A stretch of 64,000 bases of DNA from an uncultured Candidatus Saccharibacteria bacterium. GTDB lineage: Bacteria; Patescibacteriota; Saccharimonadia; Saccharimonadales; CAYVSP01. Location of the stretch: assembly GCA_964584265.1 (NCBI GenBank), contig CAZOZI010000004.1, forward strand, positions 1,877 through 65,876, given 5' to 3'. Numbering within the stretch: position 1 is the first letter of the stretch; the number at the start of each line of letters is the position of its first letter. Shown here in pieces: positions 1 to 61,942 of this stretch. The notes under the pieces were generated by a model, which ran no database searches, was not told the origin of the DNA, and saw only the letters and a list, made by a program, of their open reading frames with translations. Both the position numbers and the translations under genes were made by a program.

Positions 1-1812
1 GCACTAGTAATGTACGGTCGAGCTGGAGCCAAGCATGGTCGTGACCCACAATTGTTAATTTTAAGCAGTGAAGCTAAGCAAACGGCGGTACTTAATCTCA
101 CTAAGCTTGATAAAAAAGCTGTCCAGAAATTTTTGAGTACGCACCTAAACAACAAAGCATCGCTGGTTGGCTATGACATCAAATCGACGCTAGAAATCTT
201 GATTGAGCTTGGTGTGCCGCTGCCCGCGGTGGGGCACGATGTACTCATTGGAGCCTTTTTGCTCAACCCGCTTATACGCGAACAATCATTGACTGAGTTG
301 GCTCAAGCTGATCTTGGCTATGATGGTTCATCATTTGAAGATCTTGACCAGGCACAACTAGTTGATCGTGCAGCCGAGATAACAGGTGTAATTACAGCCT
401 TGTATGAAAAACAAACCGCTGCTCTTGCCAAGTTGCCAAAGCTTATTAAGCTGGCTCGTGACATTGAATGGCCGGTTATCCCAGTAATCGCTCGTATGGA
501 ATACGAAGGTATTCAGCTCGATACAGACTACCTCAAAAAAATGAGTGAGCAACTTGACGACATGGTGCTTGAGATTGAGCAAAAAATTTATGGTCACGCC
601 GATCAGGAATTCAATATTGGCTCACCAATCCAGCTAGCCGACATCCTATTTAACAAACTGAATTTGCCTAAAGAAGGTATAAAAAAAGGAAAAACCGGCT
701 ACTCTACAGCTGCCACTGAGCTTGATAAGCTGCGCGGGGCACATCCAATAATTGATCTCGTAACTCAGTGGCGTGAGGTCACCAAACTTAAGAACACCTA
801 CGTCGACGTTATGCCCAAAATGGTGGATGAAAACTCAAGATTACATACCACCTATGCTCTAACCGTCGCGCAAACCGGACGTCTCAGCTCCAATGATCCA
901 AACTTGCAAAATATCCCGGTTCGCACAGACCTCGGTAAGCAGATTCGCACTGCTTTTGTGGCCGGTAAGGGTAAGATACTGGTTAGCGCTGACTATTCTC
1001 AGTTTGAACTACGTCTTGCGGCTTACTTATCTGGCGATAAACGCCTGATTGATATGTTTAACCGCGACGTTGATGTGCATACCACTACTGCCGCCGAAAT
1101 ATATGGCCGCGAAGAACAGGACGTTACTAAAAATATGCGGCGCGAGGCCAAGGTTGTAAATTTTGGCGTAATGTACGGTCTTAGCACGCACGGCCTGGTG
1201 CAGGCTACTGGTCTTACCTACGAACAAGCCAAAAACTTTATTGATAAATACTTTGAAGTTCGCCCAAAGCTACGTGATTATATTGGTTCAGTTCAAGAGA
1301 TGGCCAAAACTAAAGGTTATACAGAGACAATTTTTGGTCGCCGCCGGCCTACACCTGACATTCATTCCTCTAATTTTGCTGTGCGAGAAGCTGCCATGCG
1401 ACAAGCGGTTAACATGCCATTTCAGGGCAGTGCAGCCGACATTATGAAATTGGCCATGATTGCTGTCCAATCTAAGCTCGATGAATTTAATCAGAAGTAT
1501 TTGGGTTTGGATGCAGCGCAAGGAAGCAAGGAGGAGCGAGTGAGCCGTACAAACGGTACGATGAACGAGCGACTGACGCTAGCTGACACAGCGATGCGCC
1601 AAAAGCGCGCCGGTATATCCGGCTCTGCCGGACAACAGGGCAGTGCGGCCCATATACTTCTGCAAATCCATGACAGTTTAATTGTAGAATGCAACGAAAA
1701 AGACGCTGATAAAACGGCCAAATTACTCAAAGATACCATGGAGCACGTCTATAAACTGCCAGTTAAACTCACCGTTGACACCGCAATCGGCAAAAATTGG
1801 GGTGAATTGTGA
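1..1812 (+). CDS. polA: DNA polymerase I, 3' part (5' end outside window)
   Basis: Frame of ORF 10..1812 stays open back to base 1. Family-A polymerase motifs DYSQFELR, RREAKVVNFGVMYG and QIHDSLIVE. Extra ~46-aa segment just before the QIHD strand (see findings). Confidence 0.93.
   Translation, partial: ALVMYGRAGAKHGRDPQLLILSSEAKQTAVLNLTKLDKKAVQKFLSTHLNNKASLVGYDIKSTLEILIELGVPLPAVGHDVLIGAFLLNPLIREQSLTELAQADLGYDGSSFEDLDQAQLVDRAAEITGVITALYEKQTAALAKLPKLIKLARDIEWPVIPVIARMEYEGIQLDTDYLKKMSEQLDDMVLEIEQKIYGHADQEFNIGSPIQLADILFNKLNLPKEGIKKGKTGYSTAATELDKLRGAHPIIDLVTQWREVTKLKNTYVDVMPKMVDENSRLHTTYALTVAQTGRLSSNDPNLQNIPVRTDLGKQIRTAFVAGKGKILVSADYSQFELRLAAYLSGDKRLIDMFNRDVDVHTTTAAEIYGREEQDVTKNMRREAKVVNFGVMYGLSTHGLVQATGLTYEQAKNFIDKYFEVRPKLRDYIGSVQEMAKTKGYTETIFGRRRPTPDIHSSNFAVREAAMRQAVNMPFQGSAADIMKLAMIAVQSKLDEFNQKYLGLDAAQGSKEERVSRTNGTMNERLTLADTAMRQKRAGISGSAGQQGSAAHILLQIHDSLIVECNEKDADKTAKLLKDTMEHVYKLPVKLTVDTAIGKNWGEL
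1510..1648. repeat. P1 palindromic element copy inside polA, in frame
   Basis: GATGCAGCGCAAGGAAG..GGAGCGAG..CCGTAC..GGTACG..GAGCGACTGACGC aligns block by block with the reverse complement of 26308..26426 and 15459..15565. Confidence 0.7.
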
Positions 1813-6745: not shown

Positions 6746-7783
6746 ATGCCGGAGTTGCCAGAGGTTGAGACGGTTAGAAGTGGGCTTAACAGGTTATTGC
6801 CTGGAAAGCGTGTTAAGTATGTAACGCATAATTGGGCTAAATCTTTTCCAAATGCTGAAGAAGATGTAAAGTGGTTTCTAATTGGTGCCAGAATTAAAAA
6901 AGTGGCACGTCGCGCTAAGATCTTACTAATTGAACTTGATAGCAAATATAGCCTGGTGATTCATTTAAAAATGACCGGGCAACTCGTTTTTGTAAAAAAC
7001 AATCCTTCCAGCGTATCTTCAGGCGAGCAGAATTTCGGTGCGAAGGCGAGCAACGGACCGAGTCGTAAAAGGGTTACGGTGAAGGGAGTAACGCAGCCTT
7101 TAAGCCGAAAAGCTGCCGCAAGCCAGTCTGAACAAGCGACTTGGTCGGTTGAGCTGACTGGCGATGAAGATCGCTGGGGGGCAGGGCATCCAAACGATAG
7201 CTTAATAGGTAATCTACCAGATAAAAGCACCAGAGTTATACTCGATTTTGGCGACAGCAAGCTATTTTTTAACGATCAACGCAAATTTGGCTGGATGCGG
7301 CTCATGCCAACCGCCGAAGTGCTCAACATAGACTTTATGAAAAGACTCGGACCTGAGCCATTGAATGCAGATTTTACTCAGACCACTTTCCGCGAGCGAC
7401 TTAGTCGGCGAGCGAATACAAATATTAAGGCTGCGCTGCTGGATCAAAGCGTTATTGCCGGAATCGGCAACATTTATGCCGATGAATCACTGTGGGGTGC
7501 CAAAATTCATCCAGCCACACTGGTTAAAAACCTATCTTTTAATAAACTCAATCAACTATATGATTCCATGCGTAAAGTGCTGAAACTGGCGATTAAAAAG
7601 GGCGGCTCAACCGATCGAAATTATGTAGACGCTGAGGGCAAAAAGGGCAGTTATTTAAGCTTCGCTAAGGTATTTCGGCGCAATGGGCAGCCGTGCCCAC
7701 GCTGCGGTACAATAATTGAGAAGATACGAGTTGCAGGGCGAGGCACACACTTTTGTACAAAGTGCCAGAAGTTGACAAAATAG
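6746..7783 (+). CDS. mutM: formamidopyrimidine-DNA glycosylase
   Basis: MPELPEVETVRSGL N-terminus, H2TH region, C-terminal zinc finger CPRCG...FCTKCQ. Long internal extra segment (see findings). Confidence 0.9.
   Translation: MPELPEVETVRSGLNRLLPGKRVKYVTHNWAKSFPNAEEDVKWFLIGARIKKVARRAKILLIELDSKYSLVIHLKMTGQLVFVKNNPSSVSSGEQNFGAKASNGPSRKRVTVKGVTQPLSRKAAASQSEQATWSVELTGDEDRWGAGHPNDSLIGNLPDKSTRVILDFGDSKLFFNDQRKFGWMRLMPTAEVLNIDFMKRLGPEPLNADFTQTTFRERLSRRANTNIKAALLDQSVIAGIGNIYADESLWGAKIHPATLVKNLSFNKLNQLYDSMRKVLKLAIKKGGSTDRNYVDAEGKKGSYLSFAKVFRRNGQPCPRCGTIIEKIRVAGRGTHFCTKCQKLTK
7031..7175. repeat. diverged P1-like element inside mutM, in frame
   Basis: ATTTCGGTGCGAAGG..GGACCGAGTCGTAAAAGGGTTACGGTGAAGGGAG...GCGATGAAG shares the ATTTCG terminus and the GTGC-AAGG, GGA-CGAG, CGTA/TACG and GTGA-G-GAG blocks with the P1 consensus. 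Confidence 0.5.
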
Positions 7784-9515: not shown

Positions 9516-9655
9516 TTCTTTTCCAAAGAACACAAATGCTATGTTCCATTTTTGTGTCGACAAAAACGGAACCCAAAAAACGACAGGCAGCTGCCAAACA
9601 TGATTGCCGGTCTACCCAGACTTCAGCCGTGCGCTAAAGGACTCCTTTTAGTCGG
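9513..9655 (+). repeat. composite 3'-flank element, left modules (after holA)
   Basis: Module order: TAG-GTTCTTT-tcc-AAAGAAC hairpin; hairpin GTTCC-A-TTTTTG-tgtcga-CAAAAA-C-GGAAC; box AAAACGACAGGCAGC; box AGCCGTGCGCTAAAGGACTCCTTTTAGTCGG. Collinear with 31352..31489. Confidence 0.65.
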
Positions 9656-15190: not shown

Positions 15191-15454
15191 ATGGTAACTT
15201 CGGATAAAAAAGTCAAAGCTGCTCCTAAAAAGGCAGCTAAAGTAGATACGGGCAGTACCAGTTTTCAAATTACTCATTTAACTGAGCACATAAAGGATTT
15301 AACTGGCCACCTTAAGGTGAATCCCAAGGATTTTGCAGCCCGACGAGGACTATTGCAGATGGTTGGACATCGCAAGCGTTTACTTAATTATTTAGCTAGC
15401 AAAGATAGCAAACAATACCTTACGCTCAAAGAAAAGCTAGGCATTCGCCGTTGA
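15191..15454 (+). CDS. rpsO: 30S ribosomal protein S15
   Basis: [39 protein letters not shown] is the S15 signature region. Followed by pnp, as in most bacteria. Confidence 0.93.
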
Positions 15455-15458
15455 CCCC

Positions 15459-15565
15459 CTAGTTTTGTACATTTCGTTGTTGGAACTTTCGCTCCGCGCT
15501 CACCGTACCAGTTGAGTACGGCTCGCTTGCGGTGCTCGTTCCGCCTAGAACTGTACTAAAACCAG
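15459..15565. repeat. P1 palindromic element, intergenic copy (rpsO-pnp)
   Basis: ~107-nt imperfect palindrome (CTAGTTTTGTACA...TGTACTAAAACCAG) with core GCTCAC-CGTAC-N7-GTACG-GCTCGCT. Begins 5 nt after the rpsO stop. Confidence 0.75.
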
Positions 15566-15665
15566 AGAGTCAATCTCTAAGTTAACAATTTATACGATTC
15601 GGGAGTAGGACATTAGTCCGCTGGGTATGCGGATTGAATCTTGCGCCCGAACAGAAAGGAATTTG

Positions 15666-23461: not shown

Positions 23462-24562
23462 GTGAATGTACTAAAAAAACATCCATTTAGTAAAAACACA
23501 CGACTATTTACGGCACTAAGCGCAACCATAGCCATTTTGGTCATAGGTGGTGCAGCTTTGGTTGGTATTAACCGGCTACAAGGCTCACGAGCCTTTACAG
23601 GCCATCACGCCAGGTGCGATCAGAATCAAGCCTATATCAATGGCCAACCAGTGAGTTCAGTCCAAACCGGCCAAACCTTTCAAGCAACTGTTAAATTCTA
23701 CAATGACGGAACTACTTCTTATACCAAAGCCTATGCTTGGTACATGGCTGAGTATAACGGTAGTAATTATTGGAATGCGTCTGGAAGAGACGTTAATGGT
23801 CAGACAGACCCAGGTGGAACCGCTGTATTTAATCTAACACTGCATGCCCCATCATCTGCCGGTACCTATCCTCTTAACTGGACTTTGGGCATCGCATCTT
23901 CACCACCGCAACAAGTTGCTAACCCATGTATTTCACAGCTCCAAGTCAATGCTCCGCAGCCCCCGCCAACTCCAGCGCCAAACGCACCGGGTATTTCAGT
24001 AACAGGGGTAAGCGCGAGTTCAATTAGTTTGGGATGGGGTGCCTCGAACAATACAAGTAGCTACTCAATCTTTCGAGACAACAGCCAGATTGCTAATATT
24101 AACGCTACATCTTATATAAACAGCGGTCTTGGCTGCAATACGTCGCACAGTTACTTTATAGTCGCCAATGGTCCTGGCGGCGCAACTAGGTCAAATACAG
24201 TTTATAAGACCACTAATAGCTGTTCCTCACCTAGCACTCCGGGAGGGACTAACCCACAAGGCGGCGTAAATATACAGCCAATACAGGGGTCTAGCAATGA
24301 TTCAGCTGCCAACCAGAGCTCACAGGAAAGTTTTCTTACAAATGGAGATACGAATGGATCTACGGACTCTAGTAACAATTCGCCATCTTTTGCTCAAGCA
24401 AAGCACAAGCCATTATGGGAAACACTTCTGAGGGTGTTCCTCGTACTTGTCATACTGGCAGGAGTTGGTTTTGGCGGACTGCTACTACTAGGTAAATATT
24501 TAACGGGTCGTAAGCAGAAAGAAGTTGCCGACGATTTGTGGCGCAAATCCGAAGGTCTATAG
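23462..24562 (+). CDS. surface protein with Ig-like and fibronectin type III domains, TM helices at both ends
   Basis: N-terminal TM, FN3-like segment (PGISVTGVSASSISLGWGASNNTSSYSIF), Ser/Asn-rich linker, C-terminal TM. GTG start. Confidence 0.65.
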   Translation: MNVLKKHPFSKNTRLFTALSATIAILVIGGAALVGINRLQGSRAFTGHHARCDQNQAYINGQPVSSVQTGQTFQATVKFYNDGTTSYTKAYAWYMAEYNGSNYWNASGRDVNGQTDPGGTAVFNLTLHAPSSAGTYPLNWTLGIASSPPQQVANPCISQLQVNAPQPPPTPAPNAPGISVTGVSASSISLGWGASNNTSSYSIFRDNSQIANINATSYINSGLGCNTSHSYFIVANGPGGATRSNTVYKTTNSCSSPSTPGGTNPQGGVNIQPIQGSSNDSAANQSSQESFLTNGDTNGSTDSSNNSPSFAQAKHKPLWETLLRVFLVLVILAGVGFGGLLLLGKYLTGRKQKEVADDLWRKSEGL

Positions 24563-24700
24563 TTCTTTTCCAAAGAACCAAATATTTTACTACTTTTTAC
24601 CGAAAAAGTAGCGCAAAAGCTCTCCGGCGACTTCCAGTTCTTTATGACTTTAGTTGTCAAGCGCCACGGGCGCGTTAGCCCCGTAGAGCGCCTTTGAGTT
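24560..24700. repeat. third, partial copy of the composite element
   Basis: Same TAGTTCTTTTCCAAAGAAC 19-mer on the stop codon. Hairpin CTACTTTTT-accg-AAAAAGTAG (24590..24611). Inverted fragment GCGCCCGTGG..GCTTGAC of the right module at about 24655..24676. Confidence 0.5.
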
Positions 24701-24820
24701 TCAGAGTATGAACGTCTATTGACCAACAGGGGTAAGTAAGCTATACTTGTGCGGTCATTAGTACTTCAGGTTACTGCATCTTTTGAGCGAGTAGCCTTTA
24801 ACCAAGAGAAGGACACTATT

Positions 24821-25420
24821 ATGAGTGCACGAGCAACGCAGGCCGATGAAGAACAAGGCGCTGGCGAGGAGCGCAAAGAAGATGTACAACAAAGTACTTC
24901 GACTGCGCACCGGAGTCAGCAACAGGGGTCCCCAGAAAGCCAGCTTTCCGGGGTAAAGCGCCGTAATGCATCGGCAAGTACTGACGGAGTCAGCAGCTCT
25001 CCTGGTGAACAGGTCAGTACGGTGCGTGGGTCGGTGAATCAGTACGAAATTGCTGTGCTATATCATCCGGATTTAGAAATTGATTTGGATAAAGCCGAAA
25101 AACGGGTGACCAAGATTTTTACCGACAACGTTGGCAAGGTGGTCAAAACCGACAATTGGGGCAAGCGTAAATTGGCGTATCCCATCAAAAAGAGTGAGTC
25201 AGCCGTTTACGTATTTTACACAGTTGAAATACCGGCAGAAGGTGTGCGAAAAATTGAAAGCACGCTGAATATTACAGATGAGGTTATACGTTATCTAATT
25301 GTTCGTCCTGATCTTAAGGCTATCGCTAAAGCAGAAGCTGCCAAAACCGAAAAGGCAAAAAAGGCGGCTGAGCGTGGTGATGGCGAAGAAGACAATGAAA
25401 ATGAGCATACAGAGGAATAA
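24821..25420 (+). CDS. rpsF: 30S ribosomal protein S6 (with ~70-aa N-terminal extension, or a shorter protein from GTG 25034)
   Basis: The S6 core starts at NQYEIAVLYHPD. ATG 24821 has GAAGGA upstream and the frame is open throughout. The extension is built from repeat modules (see findings). Confidence 0.85.
   Translation: MSARATQADEEQGAGEERKEDVQQSTSTAHRSQQQGSPESQLSGVKRRNASASTDGVSSSPGEQVSTVRGSVNQYEIAVLYHPDLEIDLDKAEKRVTKIFTDNVGKVVKTDNWGKRKLAYPIKKSESAVYVFYTVEIPAEGVRKIESTLNITDEVIRYLIVRPDLKAIAKAEAAKTEKAKKAAERGDGEEDNENEHTEE
24845..24912. repeat. P1-like element core in the rpsF 5' region
   Basis: GATGAAGAACAAGG..GGAGCGCAAAGAAGATGTACAACAAAGTACTTCGACTGCGC has the same block order as the polA copy (GATG-AG, CAAGG, GGAGCG, GTAC-GTAC, GCGC). 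Confidence 0.55.
24930..24953. repeat. hairpin module GGGGT-[CCCCAGAAAGC..GCTTTCCGGGG]-TAAAG
   Basis: Shares flanks and architecture with 52418..52445 but has a different, still complementary stem sequence. Confidence 0.55.
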
Positions 25421-25599: not shown

Positions 25600-26088
25600 A
25601 TGGCACGATCATTTAACCAAGCAATTTTAATGGGTAATCTTACCCGAGATCCTGAACTCAGGACCACGCCTAATGGGCAATCTGTGTGTTCTTTTAGCCT
25701 AGCGCTAAATCGCAGCTACAAGAGCAAAGATGGTGACTGGCAAGAAGTGACCGACTATGTCGATATCGTCGCCTGGGGGCCATTAGGTGAGCGTGTAGCG
25801 CAATATCTAACCAAAGGACGCCCAGCGCTCGTGAATGGTCGATTACAGTCCCGTAGCTGGGAACAGGACGGCCAAAAGCGCAATAAGGTAGAAGTGGTTG
25901 CCAGTGATGTAACTTTTCTAGGGGGTCGGGGCGATGGTAATAGCAGTGGGGGAGGTGAATTCGACCAATCTAAGCCAGATTCGCCCAGTGCCGAAAAGCC
26001 AAAACCCAGCAAAAAAGCTAAAGCTGATGATGTTGTGATAGAAGACATCGGCGATGAACCAATTAATTTAGACGATATACCGTTTTAA
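25600..26088 (+). CDS. ssb: single-stranded DNA-binding protein
   Basis: OB-fold N-terminus (NQAILMGNLTRDPELRTTPNG), Gly-rich linker, acidic tip DDIPF. AAGGAGG Shine-Dalgarno. Confidence 0.93.
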   Translation: MARSFNQAILMGNLTRDPELRTTPNGQSVCSFSLALNRSYKSKDGDWQEVTDYVDIVAWGPLGERVAQYLTKGRPALVNGRLQSRSWEQDGQKRNKVEVVASDVTFLGGRGDGNSSGGGEFDQSKPDSPSAEKPKPSKKAKADDVVIEDIGDEPINLDDIPF

Positions 26089-26097
26089 GGAGATATA

Positions 26098-26301
26098 ATG
26101 GCAAAGATTTTTAAATATAGAACAGACGTCCCGTTTTTCGACTATAAGGATTTTAAAACCTTGCAGCGCTACGTTAATGGCTACGGGCAGATTGAAACCC
26201 GTAAGAAAACAGGTCTAACTGAAAGCCAGCAACGTCGTTTGAGCGTGGCTATCAAACGCGCGCGACACATTGCACTCTTACCTTTTGTGGCAAACGGCTA
26301 G
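26098..26301 (+). CDS. rpsR: 30S ribosomal protein S18
   Basis: DYKDFKTLQRYVNGYGQIETRKKTGL and RRLSVAIKRARHIALLPF. Canonical rpsF-ssb-rpsR order. Confidence 0.93.
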   Translation: MAKIFKYRTDVPFFDYKDFKTLQRYVNGYGQIETRKKTGLTESQQRRLSVAIKRARHIALLPFVANG

Positions 26302-26307
26302 TATTTT

Positions 26308-26426
26308 TAGCCTATATTTCGCGAATTGCGGCGTCAGAACCTCCGCGCTTCGCTCACTGTACTGCTTACGGTACAGCTCGCTCCAGTACTCAGTTCTTCC
26401 TTGCACTTCATCGAAATGATAGGCTA
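26308..26426. repeat. P1 palindromic element, intergenic copy (rpsR-efp)
   Basis: 119-nt imperfect palindrome with termini TAGCCTAT-ATTTCG...CGAAAT-G-ATAGGCTA and core GCTCAC-TGTAC-N8-GTACA-GCTCGCT. Begins 7 nt after the rpsR stop. Confidence 0.75.
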
Positions 26427-26441
26427 AATTAGGAGATAATT

Positions 26442-31600: not shown

Positions 31601-31785
31601 CATCTGACTAGATGCTGTAAGAAATAGGCGCCCGTGGGTGCGAGGACTGCTTGACGAGATTTTTAGCCAGTGGCTAAAAATTGAGGAGTTCCGCAGCAAG
31701 CCTGTTTATTACAGCAGATAGATCAAATGTGACGAATGCCTGTCGTTTTTTGGGTTCTGTTTTTGTCGACACAAAAATGGAACAT
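31601..31785 (+). repeat. composite element, right module (ORF-less copy)
   Basis: Closing helix AATAGGC/GCCTGTT and internal hairpin ATTTTTAG-CCAGTGG-CTAAAAAT. Ends with an inverted copy (31738..31785) of the 9541..9589 hairpin block. Confidence 0.65.
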
Positions 31786-52184: not shown

Positions 52185-52483
52185 CGTCGCAATTAACTAT
52201 AACCTCGCCTCAACTTTCGCAAACAAGTGGCGAAAATTAGAGCGAGGTCTCGCGTTATTACTCCTTTTCCCAAGCTGAATCCTCTCAGCTTGGGGCTATC
52301 ACACTAGACCCTAAAGCATAAACCCTATACGCTTATAGTATGAATTCATATAAAAATGTTCTTTGGGGAGAAAGCCGGAGCGGCGGATTCATTCCGCGCC
52401 CCGCGCGTTATTGGGGTCCCCAAAAAGAGAGGATTCTTTTTGGGGTAAAGATGTGGGTGTCCCCCTCCTAAGGAGCGAACATA
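52185..52483. other. hairpin-dense non-coding region downstream of tRNA-Arg
   Basis: Hairpins at 52202..52248 (ACCTCGC/GCGAGGT outer, TTTCGC/GCGAAA inner), 52269..52294 (10-bp perfect CCCAAGCTGA/TCAGCTTGGG) and 52418..52445 (11-bp perfect). Confidence 0.5.
52418..52445. repeat. hairpin module GGGGT-[CCCCAAAAAGA..TCTTTTTGGGG]-TAAAG
   Basis: 11-bp perfect stem. Paralogue of 24930..24953. Confidence 0.55.
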
Positions 52484-53026
52484 GTGAGCGAAAAGCATAA
52501 ATACTTTGCTGACCAGTTAGACGACGAAGAAGTGCTGCTGGTTTTCCGCAAGCACCCAATTGTTATGCGCAAGGGTCTGATTTTGGGCATGATAGCTATT
52601 TTACTTGGCACCATCCCAGCTCTTATAAAGCCAGAGTATAGCTACTTTTTTGGCGGCCTGGCTGCTGGTTTTGTAGTTGGCGGACTGCTAATGCTGCCGG
52701 CCTGGATTGGCTGGTATTACAGCGTGTTTATTGTTACCAATCAGCGGCTGATTCAAATTACGCAAAAAGGCCTATTCCACAAAAGTGTCGTTGACGTCGG
52801 TATAAACCAGATACAAATGGTGAATTATGAAGTCGCCGGACTGCAAGAAACACTGCTGGGATTTGGTACAATAATGATGCAAACATACTTGGGTGATTTA
52901 GTAATTCATGACGTGCACCACCCGGCCAAAATTCAGAAGAAGCTGCTAGGTATTTTAAGAGACCAAGGGGTGGTGGCAGCGAGCTACCCCACGCACAGTA
53001 AAGGTGACAATGCAGAAGAAGATTAA
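52484..53026 (+). CDS. membrane protein with bacterial PH domain (YdbS/DUF304-like)
   Basis: Two TM helices followed by SVFIVTNQRLIQITQKGLFHKSVVDV. GTG start. Confidence 0.65.
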   Translation: MSEKHKYFADQLDDEEVLLVFRKHPIVMRKGLILGMIAILLGTIPALIKPEYSYFFGGLAAGFVVGGLLMLPAWIGWYYSVFIVTNQRLIQITQKGLFHKSVVDVGINQIQMVNYEVAGLQETLLGFGTIMMQTYLGDLVIHDVHHPAKIQKKLLGILRDQGVVAASYPTHSKGDNAEED

Positions 53027-55870: not shown

Positions 55871-55876
55871 GTTGCT

Positions 55877-55905
55877 ATTTTAGCACAAAAGGTATAAAAA
55901 GTCAA
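55877..55905 (-). promoter_or_regulatory. promoter of array unit 5 (type 2 module)
   Basis: TTGACT-17-TAAAAT with TGC upstream of the -10. 6 nt to the ATG. Confidence 0.7.
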
Positions 55906-55929
55906 TATTCATGCTTCTTTAACATTGCC

Positions 55930-55963
55930 GGTGTGCCTGCCTGCCGTAGGTAGGGAACTATTT
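55930..55963. repeat. array junction motif (unit 4/5 junction)
   Basis: Plus-strand reading GGTGTGCCTGCCTGCCGTAGGTAGGGAACTATTT. Confidence 0.8.
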
Positions 55964-55999
55964 ATAACTAGCAAACAAAAACCCAGTAACCAATAGGCT

Positions 56000-56323: not shown

Positions 56324-56342
56324 GATAATTTCCTGAGTATTT

Positions 56343-56371
56343 ATTCTAGCATAAACATGATAGAAAGTCAA
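56343..56371 (-). promoter_or_regulatory. promoter of array unit 4 (type 2 module)
   Basis: TTGACT-17-TAGAAT. Here a 19-nt leader with AGGAAA precedes the ATG. Confidence 0.7.
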
Positions 56372-56372
56372 C

Positions 56373-56386
56373 TGGCGGACCTTAAC
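56373..56386 (-). repeat. tRNA-Asp 3'-end-like sequence, junction 3/4
   Basis: Minus strand GTTAAGGTCCGCCA followed by GTTGAC (-35). Compare tRNA-Asp GTCGGGCCCGCCA followed by GTTGAT. Confidence 0.55.
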
Positions 56387-56392
56387 AGAAGA

Positions 56393-56408
56393 GGTGTGGA
56401 ATTATTTT
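56393..56408. repeat. array junction motif, short form (unit 3/4 junction)
   Basis: GGTGTGGAATTATTTT is the same flanks with the central 19 nt (GCCTGCCTGCCGTAGGTAG) precisely absent. Confidence 0.7.
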
Positions 56409-57379: not shown

Positions 57380-57408
57380 ATAATACCACAAAAGTAGTAT
57401 TAAAGCAA
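57380..57408 (-). promoter_or_regulatory. promoter of array unit 3 (type 1 module)
   Basis: TTGCTT-17-TATTAT, 7 nt to the ATG. About 90 percent identical by eye to the unit 1 promoter, including ATACTAC-N4-GTGGTAT. Confidence 0.7.
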
Positions 57409-57411
57409 CAC

Positions 57412-57426
57412 TGGCGGACCCTGACG
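57412..57426 (-). repeat. tRNA-Asp 3'-end-like sequence, junction 2/3
   Basis: Minus strand CGTCAGGGTCCGCCA. Matches 12 of 13 tRNA 3'-end positions with one 1-nt indel. Confidence 0.55.
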
Positions 57427-57431
57427 TTGCA

Positions 57432-57466
57432 GGTGTGCCTGCCTGCCGTAAGTAGGGAACTATTTT
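57432..57466. repeat. array junction motif (unit 2/3 junction)
   Basis: GGTGTGCCTGCCTGCCGTAAGTAGGGAACTATTTT. Confidence 0.8.
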
Positions 57467-57499
57467 GTGTTTTCAGAAGGTTTTGCTAAAAAAAAGCTA

Positions 57500-58120: not shown

Positions 58121-58126
58121 TAGTTT

Positions 58127-58155
58127 ATTGTAGCATAAACAGTATGAAAAGTCAA
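58127..58155 (-). promoter_or_regulatory. promoter of array unit 2 (type 2 module)
   Basis: TTGACT-17-TACAAT with TGC upstream of the -10. 6 nt to the ATG. Confidence 0.7.
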
Positions 58156-58156
58156 T

Positions 58157-58171
58157 TGGTGGGCCTTGACG
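58157..58171 (-). repeat. tRNA-Asp 3'-end-like sequence, junction 1/2
   Basis: Minus strand CGTCAAGGCCCACCA followed by ATTGAC (-35). Confidence 0.5.
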
Positions 58172-58176
58172 TTAGA

Positions 58177-58211
58177 GGTGTGCCTGCCTGCCGTAGGTAG
58201 GGAATTATTTT
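58177..58211. repeat. array junction motif (unit 1/2 junction)
   Basis: GGTGTGCCTGCCTGCCGTAGGTAGGGAATTATTTT. Its 3' part supplies the last codons and TAA stop of unit 1. Confidence 0.8.
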
Positions 58212-58636
58212 CTTAATTCAGGTACGACTAACGCACCGTTGTCCATAGGAATACTGTAACGATTAATCTGAGGAACGCTTAAGGATGCGGCCGTATGGAA
58301 TTCATCAGGATAAAGACGAACCCATGTAAAATCTCCTCGAGGTCTAAAAGCCCTTGCTGTAGCTACGCCGCCGACCTTAAATAGTATTCTTAACTTACCA
58401 AGCTCTAAAGATGAGCCAACGACACGAAACTCAGGGTCTGTTCTATATACTTCAGATGGTAACAAACCCCGCATGAAGCCGTTAAGTTCGTCTGCAGTAT
58501 ATAGGGGGGTTGCTGGATAACTGTGGACTTCATAACCAACCACGTCTCCATCTTCATGATGATCACGAACAGCAGCAACTACCAGTTCAGGGTTTGCTTG
58601 TAATGTGTCAACTACATCTCTTGGAAAATTAGCCAT
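58205..58636 (-). CDS. hypothetical protein, array unit 1
   Basis: 143-aa ORF. Promoter TTGATT-17-TATTAT starts 1 nt after the tRNA-Asp CCA end and ends 7 nt before the ATG. Confidence 0.65.
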   Translation of the reverse strand: MANFPRDVVDTLQANPELVVAAVRDHHEDGDVVGYEVHSYPATPLYTADELNGFMRGLLPSEVYRTDPEFRVVGSSLELGKLRILFKVGGVATARAFRPRGDFTWVRLYPDEFHTAASLSVPQINRYSIPMDNGALVVPELRK

Positions 58637-61856: not shown

Positions 61857-61942
61857 GTTAACTCGAGTAATATAGTGCAAACGAGCAAGAAAGTCAACAA
61901 TATGACATAGCATAAGCGTCTTAGAGTGCTACAATACTATTC

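Follow-up and report, generated by a model that had tools for sequence, protein, structure and literature searches.

A dispersed folding element as the likely source of an in-frame N-terminal extension of ribosomal protein S6 in Saccharimonadales

To our knowledge, foldable repeats carried in frame within essential genes have until now counted as peculiar to Rickettsia, a lineage that, like the Saccharibacteria, has a reduced genome and depends on a host. The Rickettsia palindromic elements (RPEs) are foldable repeats of ~150 nucleotides present in many copies in a reduced genome; as summarized in PMC10969869, about half lie in frame inside unrelated housekeeping open reading frames (ORFs) and half elsewhere, and that summary knows of no associated transposase (Ogata, 2000, Science 290:347; Ogata, 2002, Genome Res 12:808). 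Here we analyze 64,000 nucleotides of DNA from an uncultured Candidatus Saccharibacteria bacterium of the order Saccharimonadales (hereafter the window), in which rpsF, the gene for ribosomal protein S6, carries 71 additional codons at its start. In our view this extension is likely a passenger tail of the RPE kind: it copies, in frame, a dispersed element of ~165 nucleotides that is native to Saccharimonadales and folds strand-specifically.

That the rpsF-ssb-rpsR operon begins with structured RNA has a precedent: the S6:S18 complex reportedly binds the rpsF leader, where the motif is said to be a short hairpin in the untranslated region (UTR). The window has a UTR hairpin as well (24768-24797), but it is separate from, and older than, the element, which spans 168 positions, lies after the start codon and recurs at many unrelated loci. 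Bacterial MITEs (miniature transposable elements with inverted repeats) and intergenic repeats (ERIC/IRU, BOX, Correia/NEMIS and the Anabaena MITEs; PMC10969869) resemble the element in being small, non-autonomous, multi-copy and foldable, in occupying transcribed regions in both orientations, and in showing nested hairpin insertions and in-frame fusions. The element departs from them in that its terminal inverted repeats are not conserved between copies, that we saw no target-site duplication consistent among copies, and that a high fraction is intragenic (three of five copies in the window). The PARCELs of Mollicutes, as PMC2996958 presents them, are also palindromic coding repeats spread among the proteins of minimal genomes, but they are tandem intragenic repeats selected as protein modules, whereas here we find single copies with little constraint on the peptide. 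A limited literature search returned no paper tying such elements to the Candidate Phyla Radiation (CPR), which does not in itself prove novelty.

The likeness to RPEs is one of functional class, by description and not by sequence homology, and the phyla are unrelated. Both are short, foldable, multi-copy repeats found in frame in unrelated ORFs, with a peptide tolerated in loops or termini; the Saccharimonadales family is a fold-back repeat in many copies, with several unrelated in-frame hosts, inserted where the host fold tolerates it (S6, Fpg, PolA). Where an RPE is a simple long palindrome, this family folds into a three-way junction whose junction bases are conserved; it also differs from RPEs in folding strand-specifically and in that compensatory changes preserve both its fold and its sequence across species at one orthologous locus. 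Further, its closing helix differs at every locus, and two or more of the element's reading frames are in use.

The closest relatives of the window's S6 are all from Saccharimonadales (CPR/TM7). At ~72 of 80 species-level loci S6 begins, with ATG, TTG or GTG, directly at NQYEIAV, with a Shine-Dalgarno (SD) sequence just upstream and in-frame stops further up (the short form). The long form is found at 7 of the 80, at the additional locus L081 and on several metagenome contigs; ~40 of the best 120 S6 clusters have a 185-219-residue form with an alignable N-terminus. An initial annotation, made from the letters of the window, had proposed a frame open from ATG 24821 behind a GAAGGA SD and a normal S6 N-terminus at GTG 25034, and both proposals hold:

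24719..24747, forward strand: sigma-70-like rpsF promoter, TTGACC-17-TATACT, matching at 10 of 12 positions
24768..24797, forward strand: leader hairpin GGUUACUGC..GCGAGUAGCC in the rpsF 5' UTR, present in short and long forms
24808..24813, forward strand: SD GAAGGA, orthologous to the short-form rpsF SD, 7 nucleotides (nt) before the ATG
24821..24823, forward strand: ATG at the ancestral rpsF start position
24821 or 25034 to 25420, forward strand: rpsF ORF
25034..25420, forward strand: S6 core (Pfam Ribosomal_S6, PF01250; annotation precomputed on P0001)

The frame runs uninterrupted for 213 nt (71 codons) from ATG 24821 to GTG 25034, the first codon of the S6 core, which coincides with the start-codon position of the short-form genes and from which the canonical N-terminus reads (V)NQYEIAVLYHPD. 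DNA alignment shows that the promoter (TTGACn-17-TAnAAT), the covarying leader hairpin and the SD are common to short and long forms. The window's promoter aligns with TTGACnAACAGGGGTA..TAnAAT of the short-form loci L007, L039, L044, L027, L078 and others, and 24718-24813 aligns to 1898-1993 of L007, with an ATG 8 nt further on in both. Because promoter, leader and SD align and the ATG stands at the same offset in the short form, ATG 24821 is the ancestral start position, behind which the long forms carry an insert of 177-216 nt. S6 is short in relatives that lack the element, all the long S6 proteins that we found carry it, and no relative lacking the repeats shares the long N-terminus, so the suggestion that the extension derives from repeats stands. 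The insert is flanked by the hexamers ATGAGT/ATGAAT and NTGAAT/NTGAGT (in the window, ATGAGT at 24821 and GTGAAT at 25034), which suggest, and do no more than suggest, a duplication of a target ATGAAY. In a crude neighbor-joining tree of four proteins, species with the long form are interspersed with short-form species, a patchiness that implies either several precise losses or repeated gain.

A covariance model of the element, R1, was built from relatives; its E-values are rough. The 204 nt of the element at rpsF fold as a three-way junction, and the family model has ~168 positions and 53 base pairs:

24830..25033, forward strand: element copy forming the S6 extension (cmsearch 159.7 bits, E 1e-37)
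24831-24840/25023-25032, forward strand: closing helix P1
24842-24850/24967-24975, forward strand: helix P2
24860-24887/24894-24920, forward strand: long arm P3
24978-24985/25013-25020, forward strand: arm P4, with an inner hairpin

In an alignment of nine S6 orthologues, RNAalifold returns a closed three-way junction of 58 pairs, of which 19 have changed on both sides; 92% of pair cells hold standard pairs, a share that drops to 21-42% once partners are shifted by 1-3 columns, and the observed covariation was reached by 0 of 500 shuffles. The signal persists in 18 copies from five kinds of locus, where 93% of pair cells are paired (25-38% with partners slid) and 35 of 53 pairs show changes on both sides, again reached by 0 of 500 shuffles. 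The fold belongs to one strand: G·U occupies 76 cells and A·C 15, the consensus energy from alifold is −64.7 kcal/mol for the sense strand against −36.7 kcal/mol for the antisense, and the sense strand folds better in 18 of 18 copies. Unpaired junction and loop bases (CAAGGCG, GAGGAGCGCAA, GCAA..CGCAGUAAU and CGGUGCG) are as conserved as the paired ones. The closing helix differs in sequence from locus to locus, as with CAACCTTCTCA/TGAGAAGGTTG in L087 and CACGATTTTCGCA/TGCGAAAATGCGTG in L086, and its inverted repeats share a weak inner consensus only (..YTTYNGCA / TGCNRAAR..).

Rfam 15 at gathering thresholds returned tRNAs only for the whole window, and a scan of 24500-25150 at E<=10 gave a single spurious snoRNA match (E 2.9), with no riboswitch, ribosomal-protein leader, ribozyme or group I/II intron. 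A hammerhead-like motif, CUGAUGAG, occurs in some copies of the element and was dropped because it is not conserved. Mimicry of the 16S rRNA site for S6:S18 was set aside by reasoning: the helices about the junction do not follow the order of h20, h21 and h22-h23, and the element stands at unrelated loci.

In 481 kb of Saccharimonadales contigs, including the 64-kb window, R1 matches 34 places, five of them within the window. The four window members beyond the rpsF copy have rough E-values of 3e-19 to 1e-7. BLAST and pattern searches of the window for the "P1-like core" named in the initial annotation gave nothing beyond matches of <=15 nt; the core is nevertheless a repeat, as the covariance model brings out.

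1495..1659, forward strand: member in DNA polymerase I, in frame between ..KLDEFNQK and HILLQIHDSLIVE, in the same element frame as in S6 (cmsearch 85.1 bits)
7012..7175, forward strand: member in Fpg/MutM (ORF 6746-7783), in frame, in an element frame different from that in S6 (cmsearch 45.5 bits)
15452..15572, reverse strand: member without arm P4, between rpsO and pnp and antisense to both (47.5 bits)
26306..26428, reverse strand: degenerate member in the rpsR-efp spacer, antisense to the genes at either side (model match 26270-26427, 37.5 bits)

The PolA insert falls between the positions of ..EEMGAR and MLLQVHDE of Taq polymerase, and the Fpg insert adds ~79 residues between residues 80 and 91 of solved Fpg. 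An apparent overlap of the 26270-26427 match with the S18 C-terminus was rejected as over-extension, for ALLPFVANG is also present at empty sites and the palindrome begins after the S18 stop. The extension had been proposed to be assembled from three intergenic-type repeat modules; what is found is one dispersed element that also occurs between genes, plus a nested hairpin, and not a mosaic.

Searches beyond these contigs extended the range of hosts. A frame-blind DNA pattern taken from arm P3 hit 13 loci in metagenome contigs, ten of which are rpsF; in the other three the copy is in frame, within TsaE (L087, L090) and a glycosyltransferase-like gene (L086). The TsaE inserts sit between SPTFTL..Y and HFDFYRL, and a −1/+1 indel pair means that eight of their codons are read in a frame other than that of S6. 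A peptide profile run against 1.84e9 representative proteins gave 47 matches, of which ~30 are stand-alone ORFs of 49-66 residues; other hosts are TruB, MPG (methylpurine glycosylase), TilS, Dus, a HAD hydrolase, TsaE, MnmA, a pilin-like protein and unknowns, and one Dus protein carries two copies. A peptide-profile search of a word index of 5.8e9 proteins, which misses short low-complexity queries, returned two small ORFs, leading to L096 and L097. In both the element is a free-standing ORF (1415-1594, 59 residues, in L096; 1433-1582, 49 residues, in L097) with a stop that overlaps the following gene's start codon; that gene encodes a P-loop kinase in L096 and a ROK kinase in L097. The start of the L096 ORF also overlaps the yqeY stop, and these overlaps suggest translational coupling through the element.

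What has been kept in the extension is the frame and the fold rather than the peptide. Among 13 distinct S6 orthologues, frame 0 is free of stops in all 13, while frame 1 carries 1-3 and frame 2 carries 1-6, an outcome of the proposed comparison of frames that favors translation; length differences between orthologues (+3, +36, +39 and +39 nt) all keep the frame. The old start codon is GTG or TTG in most orthologues but GGC in L011 and L084 and CTG in L002. The rates of change differ between extension and core (pS and pN, proportions of synonymous and nonsynonymous differences):

Extension: pS 0.32, pN 0.22, dN/dS ~0.6; differences at codon positions one to three 0.21 / 0.26 / 0.26
S6 core: pS 0.77, pN 0.15, dN/dS ~0.09; differences at codon positions one to three 0.17 / 0.14 / 0.54

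The extension thus shows neither codon periodicity nor a third-position excess, and its synonymous sites are constrained: the constraint is on the nucleic-acid fold and junction bases, and the peptide is barely constrained. The tail (for example ATQADEEQGAGEER) is hydrophilic and predicted to be disordered. AlphaFold, run with a 45-sequence alignment, gives residues 1-69 a predicted local distance difference test score (pLDDT) of 33-41 and no secondary structure, with a confident S6 core at 72-185. The idea of a Ser/Gln/Glu-rich, repeat-encoded tail therefore survives as to its repeat origin and not as to selection for those residues (dN/dS ~0.6).

Together, these observations favor translation from ATG 24821 over an untranslated 5' UTR. 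We infer it from the orthology of the start signals, the maintenance of the frame, the loss of the old start in some lineages and the read-through of the element elsewhere, since a copy internal to PolA, Fpg or TsaE requires read-through. Of the two possibilities first raised for this locus, a translated repeat tail and a structured 5' UTR, we accordingly favor the former, and the "structured RNA" half of the latter is also true, given the strongly covarying fold.

Insertion at the outset of rpsF, perhaps with duplication of ATGAAY, would have left the ancestral promoter, leader hairpin, SD and ATG before the element and the old second codon onward after it. Ribosomes would start at ATG 24821 and read through, giving a disordered S6 tail of ~59 residues; in this genome the tail has 71, because a second, REP-like hairpin of 34 nt was inserted in the junction loop and added 12 codons. 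Such an insertion could be tolerated because one frame is open and the S6 N-terminus can carry a disordered tail. The peptide would be the passenger, and the fold and junction bases what is kept. Presence in frame in housekeeping genes and also between genes, with presence/absence differences between species, amounts to RPE-like behavior, in which selfish foldable DNA may survive inside genes only where the frame stays open.

The element is probably mobile, to judge from its distribution. Orthologous sites are polymorphic for its presence at the rpsF start, in the rpsF-ssb-rpsR-efp spacers, where different spacers are occupied in different species, and in fpg, where relatives have filled and empty sites and one filled/empty pair was aligned at the DNA level. 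We found no consistent direct repeat at 19 other copies or at the fpg filled/empty pair, and a possible target-site duplication (ATGAAY) at rpsF only.

The closing helix extends into the host gene at two sites. In fpg (6990-7030 / 7160-7200) its 3' strand enters host-coding DEDRWG (DQMRFG at empty sites), and in polA (1489-1508 / 1646-1665) it enters HILL, which precedes QIHD of the polymerase motif; in both, the complementary strand lies on the insert side. This arrangement suggests that the 5' arm of P1 may be an inverted copy of the 3' target flank. Inverted copying of the flank, insertion into small palindromes, template switching and selection are all options for how P1 could have arisen. 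Relatives' Fpg proteins (P0170-P0289) form a length continuum of 289-356 residues at a single insertion point, as if shrinking codon by codon, and P0183 and P0179 have a further insert of ~10 residues (VKGLSSHKSG / VRGPTSH) at a second site.

Several observations weigh against a translated, mobile passenger. That the tail is made as protein is itself an argument from start signals and reading frames, and the loss of the old start in three relatives does not alone exclude internal initiation, because an in-frame GTG at 25019-25021, within the conserved CGGUGCG and five codons before the old start, is present in all copies. The matches that came from peptide searches are biased toward copies with an open frame. 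Copies share no conserved terminal repeats, and no transposase partner turned up, although a parent insertion sequence was not sought; with target duplications inconsistent as well, mobility is argued from distribution only. Above all, the fold and the unpaired bases are strongly kept in place across species, which a decaying selfish insert does not explain: the species compared have saturated synonymous sites, yet the fold of the rpsF element is kept. Gene conversion was rejected as the source of the covariation, since the S6 copy is 72-80% identical to the S6 copies of other species and has no BLAST similarity to copies in its own genome.

Conservation in place without gene conversion points to selection on RNA or single-stranded DNA at each locus. 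We therefore entertain, as a tentative possibility, that the element is a functional RNA (or single-stranded DNA) module under purifying selection locus by locus and not mere selfish DNA. The invariant junction bases, the strand specificity and the translated position in mRNAs for translation, tRNA modification and DNA repair speak for such a module. It might, for instance, give a CPR-specific RNase or RNA-binding protein a place to dock and so regulate the host mRNAs jointly, or act as the substrate of an excision or mobility machinery recognizing the closing helix formed with the target flank.

A regulatory role can also be cast more narrowly, with the 213 nt as an untranslated or incidentally translated leader, such as an S6:S18 autoregulatory site or another riboregulator, and with S6 starting at GTG 25034 or 25019. 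The strong covarying fold with its conserved unpaired bases, the constrained synonymous sites and the GTG or TTG retained at the old start in most orthologues would fit a leader, as would L096 and L097, where the element lies directly upstream of a gene start with overlapping stop and start. We nonetheless think it unlikely. The element comes downstream of the ancestral SD and ATG and not upstream of them; GTG 25034 lacks a good SD and is sequestered in helix P1. All 13 orthologues have one open frame, with the others closed and the indels frame-keeping, three relatives have GGC or CTG at the old start, and Rfam gives no match. The element also lies inside PolA, Fpg, TsaE, TruB and other proteins, where a leader role is impossible.

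We strongly doubt that mature S6, PolA and Fpg lack the element through its removal after transcription or translation, whether by intron-like or RNase/ligase excision, by protein splicing or by translational bypass. In every copy a closing helix of locus-specific sequence juxtaposes the flanks, in fpg and polA it extends into host sequence, and the fold is under purifying selection in place, all as removal might have it. Excision at the RNA level, however, would make an open frame unnecessary, and all coding copies nonetheless keep theirs, with some indel pairs that restore it; neither a group I/II intron model nor a ribozyme model of Rfam 15 matches; and the Fpg decay series fits translated inserts that shrink by codons. 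As for inteins, the insert is 59-71 residues long, of low complexity and predicted to be disordered, and it lacks Cys/Ser/Thr junctions and a terminal Asn, where an intein would have Hint blocks and >=~130 residues.

That the extension is instead a genuine, selected N-terminal S6 domain of one Saccharimonadales clade, its resemblance to repeats being secondary, is hardly credible: the ~40 clusters with an alignable N-terminus would agree with it, but dN/dS is ~0.6 with no third-position excess, the tail is predicted with a pLDDT below 50 and no secondary structure, close relatives carry the long form patchily, and the nucleotide sequence recurs in other frames, within unrelated proteins and on both strands of intergenic DNA.

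If the translated, RPE-like insertion is correct, a rare phenomenon gains its second case, and the occurrence in Saccharibacteria of an unrelated family with a more elaborate structure speaks for convergence. Acquisition of new protein segments through such elements may be general among small genomes, and many "extended" or "hypothetical" CPR proteins and ORFs of 50-60 residues may be copies of the element. N-terminal extensions of CPR ribosomal proteins should be checked for it before ribosome specialization is inferred. A fold and unpaired bases that are kept while the peptide drifts represent overlapping RNA and protein constraints, and may point to an RNA-level function or to the mechanism of mobility.

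A smaller repeat accounts for the additional length of the tail in the window:

24925..24958, forward strand: small hairpin GGGGTCCCCAGAAAGCCAGCTTTCCGGGGTAAAG, 34 nt, nested at the variable junction of the element between P3 and P2
52413..52450, forward strand: second small hairpin GGGGTCCCCAAAAAGAGAGGATTCTTTTTGGGGTAAAG, non-coding, upstream of the gene at 52484-53026

The flanks of the two hairpins are identical and the stem changes between them compensatory (two matches against 0.25 expected), which upholds the earlier observation that this module also occurs in non-coding DNA. The nested copy adds 36 nt, or 12 codons (GSPESQLSGVKR), to the S6 extension. At the P3/P2 junction the GGGGTCCCC..GGGGTAAAG hairpin is present in the window and L081, L005 has an unrelated hairpin, and the other orthologues have none. 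A third relative lies directly after the ychF stop (7105; region 7100-7142) in another Saccharimonadales contig, L088. The hairpin looks like a unit of the repetitive extragenic palindromic (REP) kind: as in REP and REPIN sequences, it is a short GC-rich stem-loop with conserved flanks and a compensatory stem, lying behind a stop codon in one place and in a leader in another. It differs from them in having been seen in three contexts only, one of them inside another element and a coding frame.

The second GGGGTCCCC..GGGG(T/A)A(A)G hairpin lies within a GC-rich, hairpin-rich non-coding stretch, 52340-52484, before the membrane-protein gene 52484-53026. A direct repeat had also been read as a module of the extension. 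GGAGTCAGCA does occur exactly twice in the window, at 24912-24921 and 24986-24995, where chance predicts 0.08, but the two sites are identical in no relative; because they differ in every one, we regard the repeat as a local coincidence and not a module.

The leader hairpin at 24768-24797, which covaries between species, has no Rfam match. In four relatives (L001, L002, L005 and L044) an extra hairpin, CACCCGCCTAAACTT..AAGTTTAGGCGGG, is inserted into the rpsF leader. Viral contigs gave no matches to the element. Downstream of rpsF the gene order is that expected for S6:

25600-26088, forward strand: ssb
26098-26301, forward strand: rpsR, followed by efp

Two other repeats were observed in the window. 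A 64-nt inverted repeat, ATGTTCCATTTTTGTGTCGACAAAAAC..., lies at 9541-9604 and 31722-31785, with its arms 88% complementary and 22 kb apart. Another repeat family, whose core GGTGTGCCTGCCTGCCGTAGGTAGGGAA follows TATT.TAGCA.AAAC...GTCAA, occurs at 55876-55974, 56340-56398, 57389-57476, 58124-58221 and 61868-61898, toward the end of the window that is rich in tRNAs.

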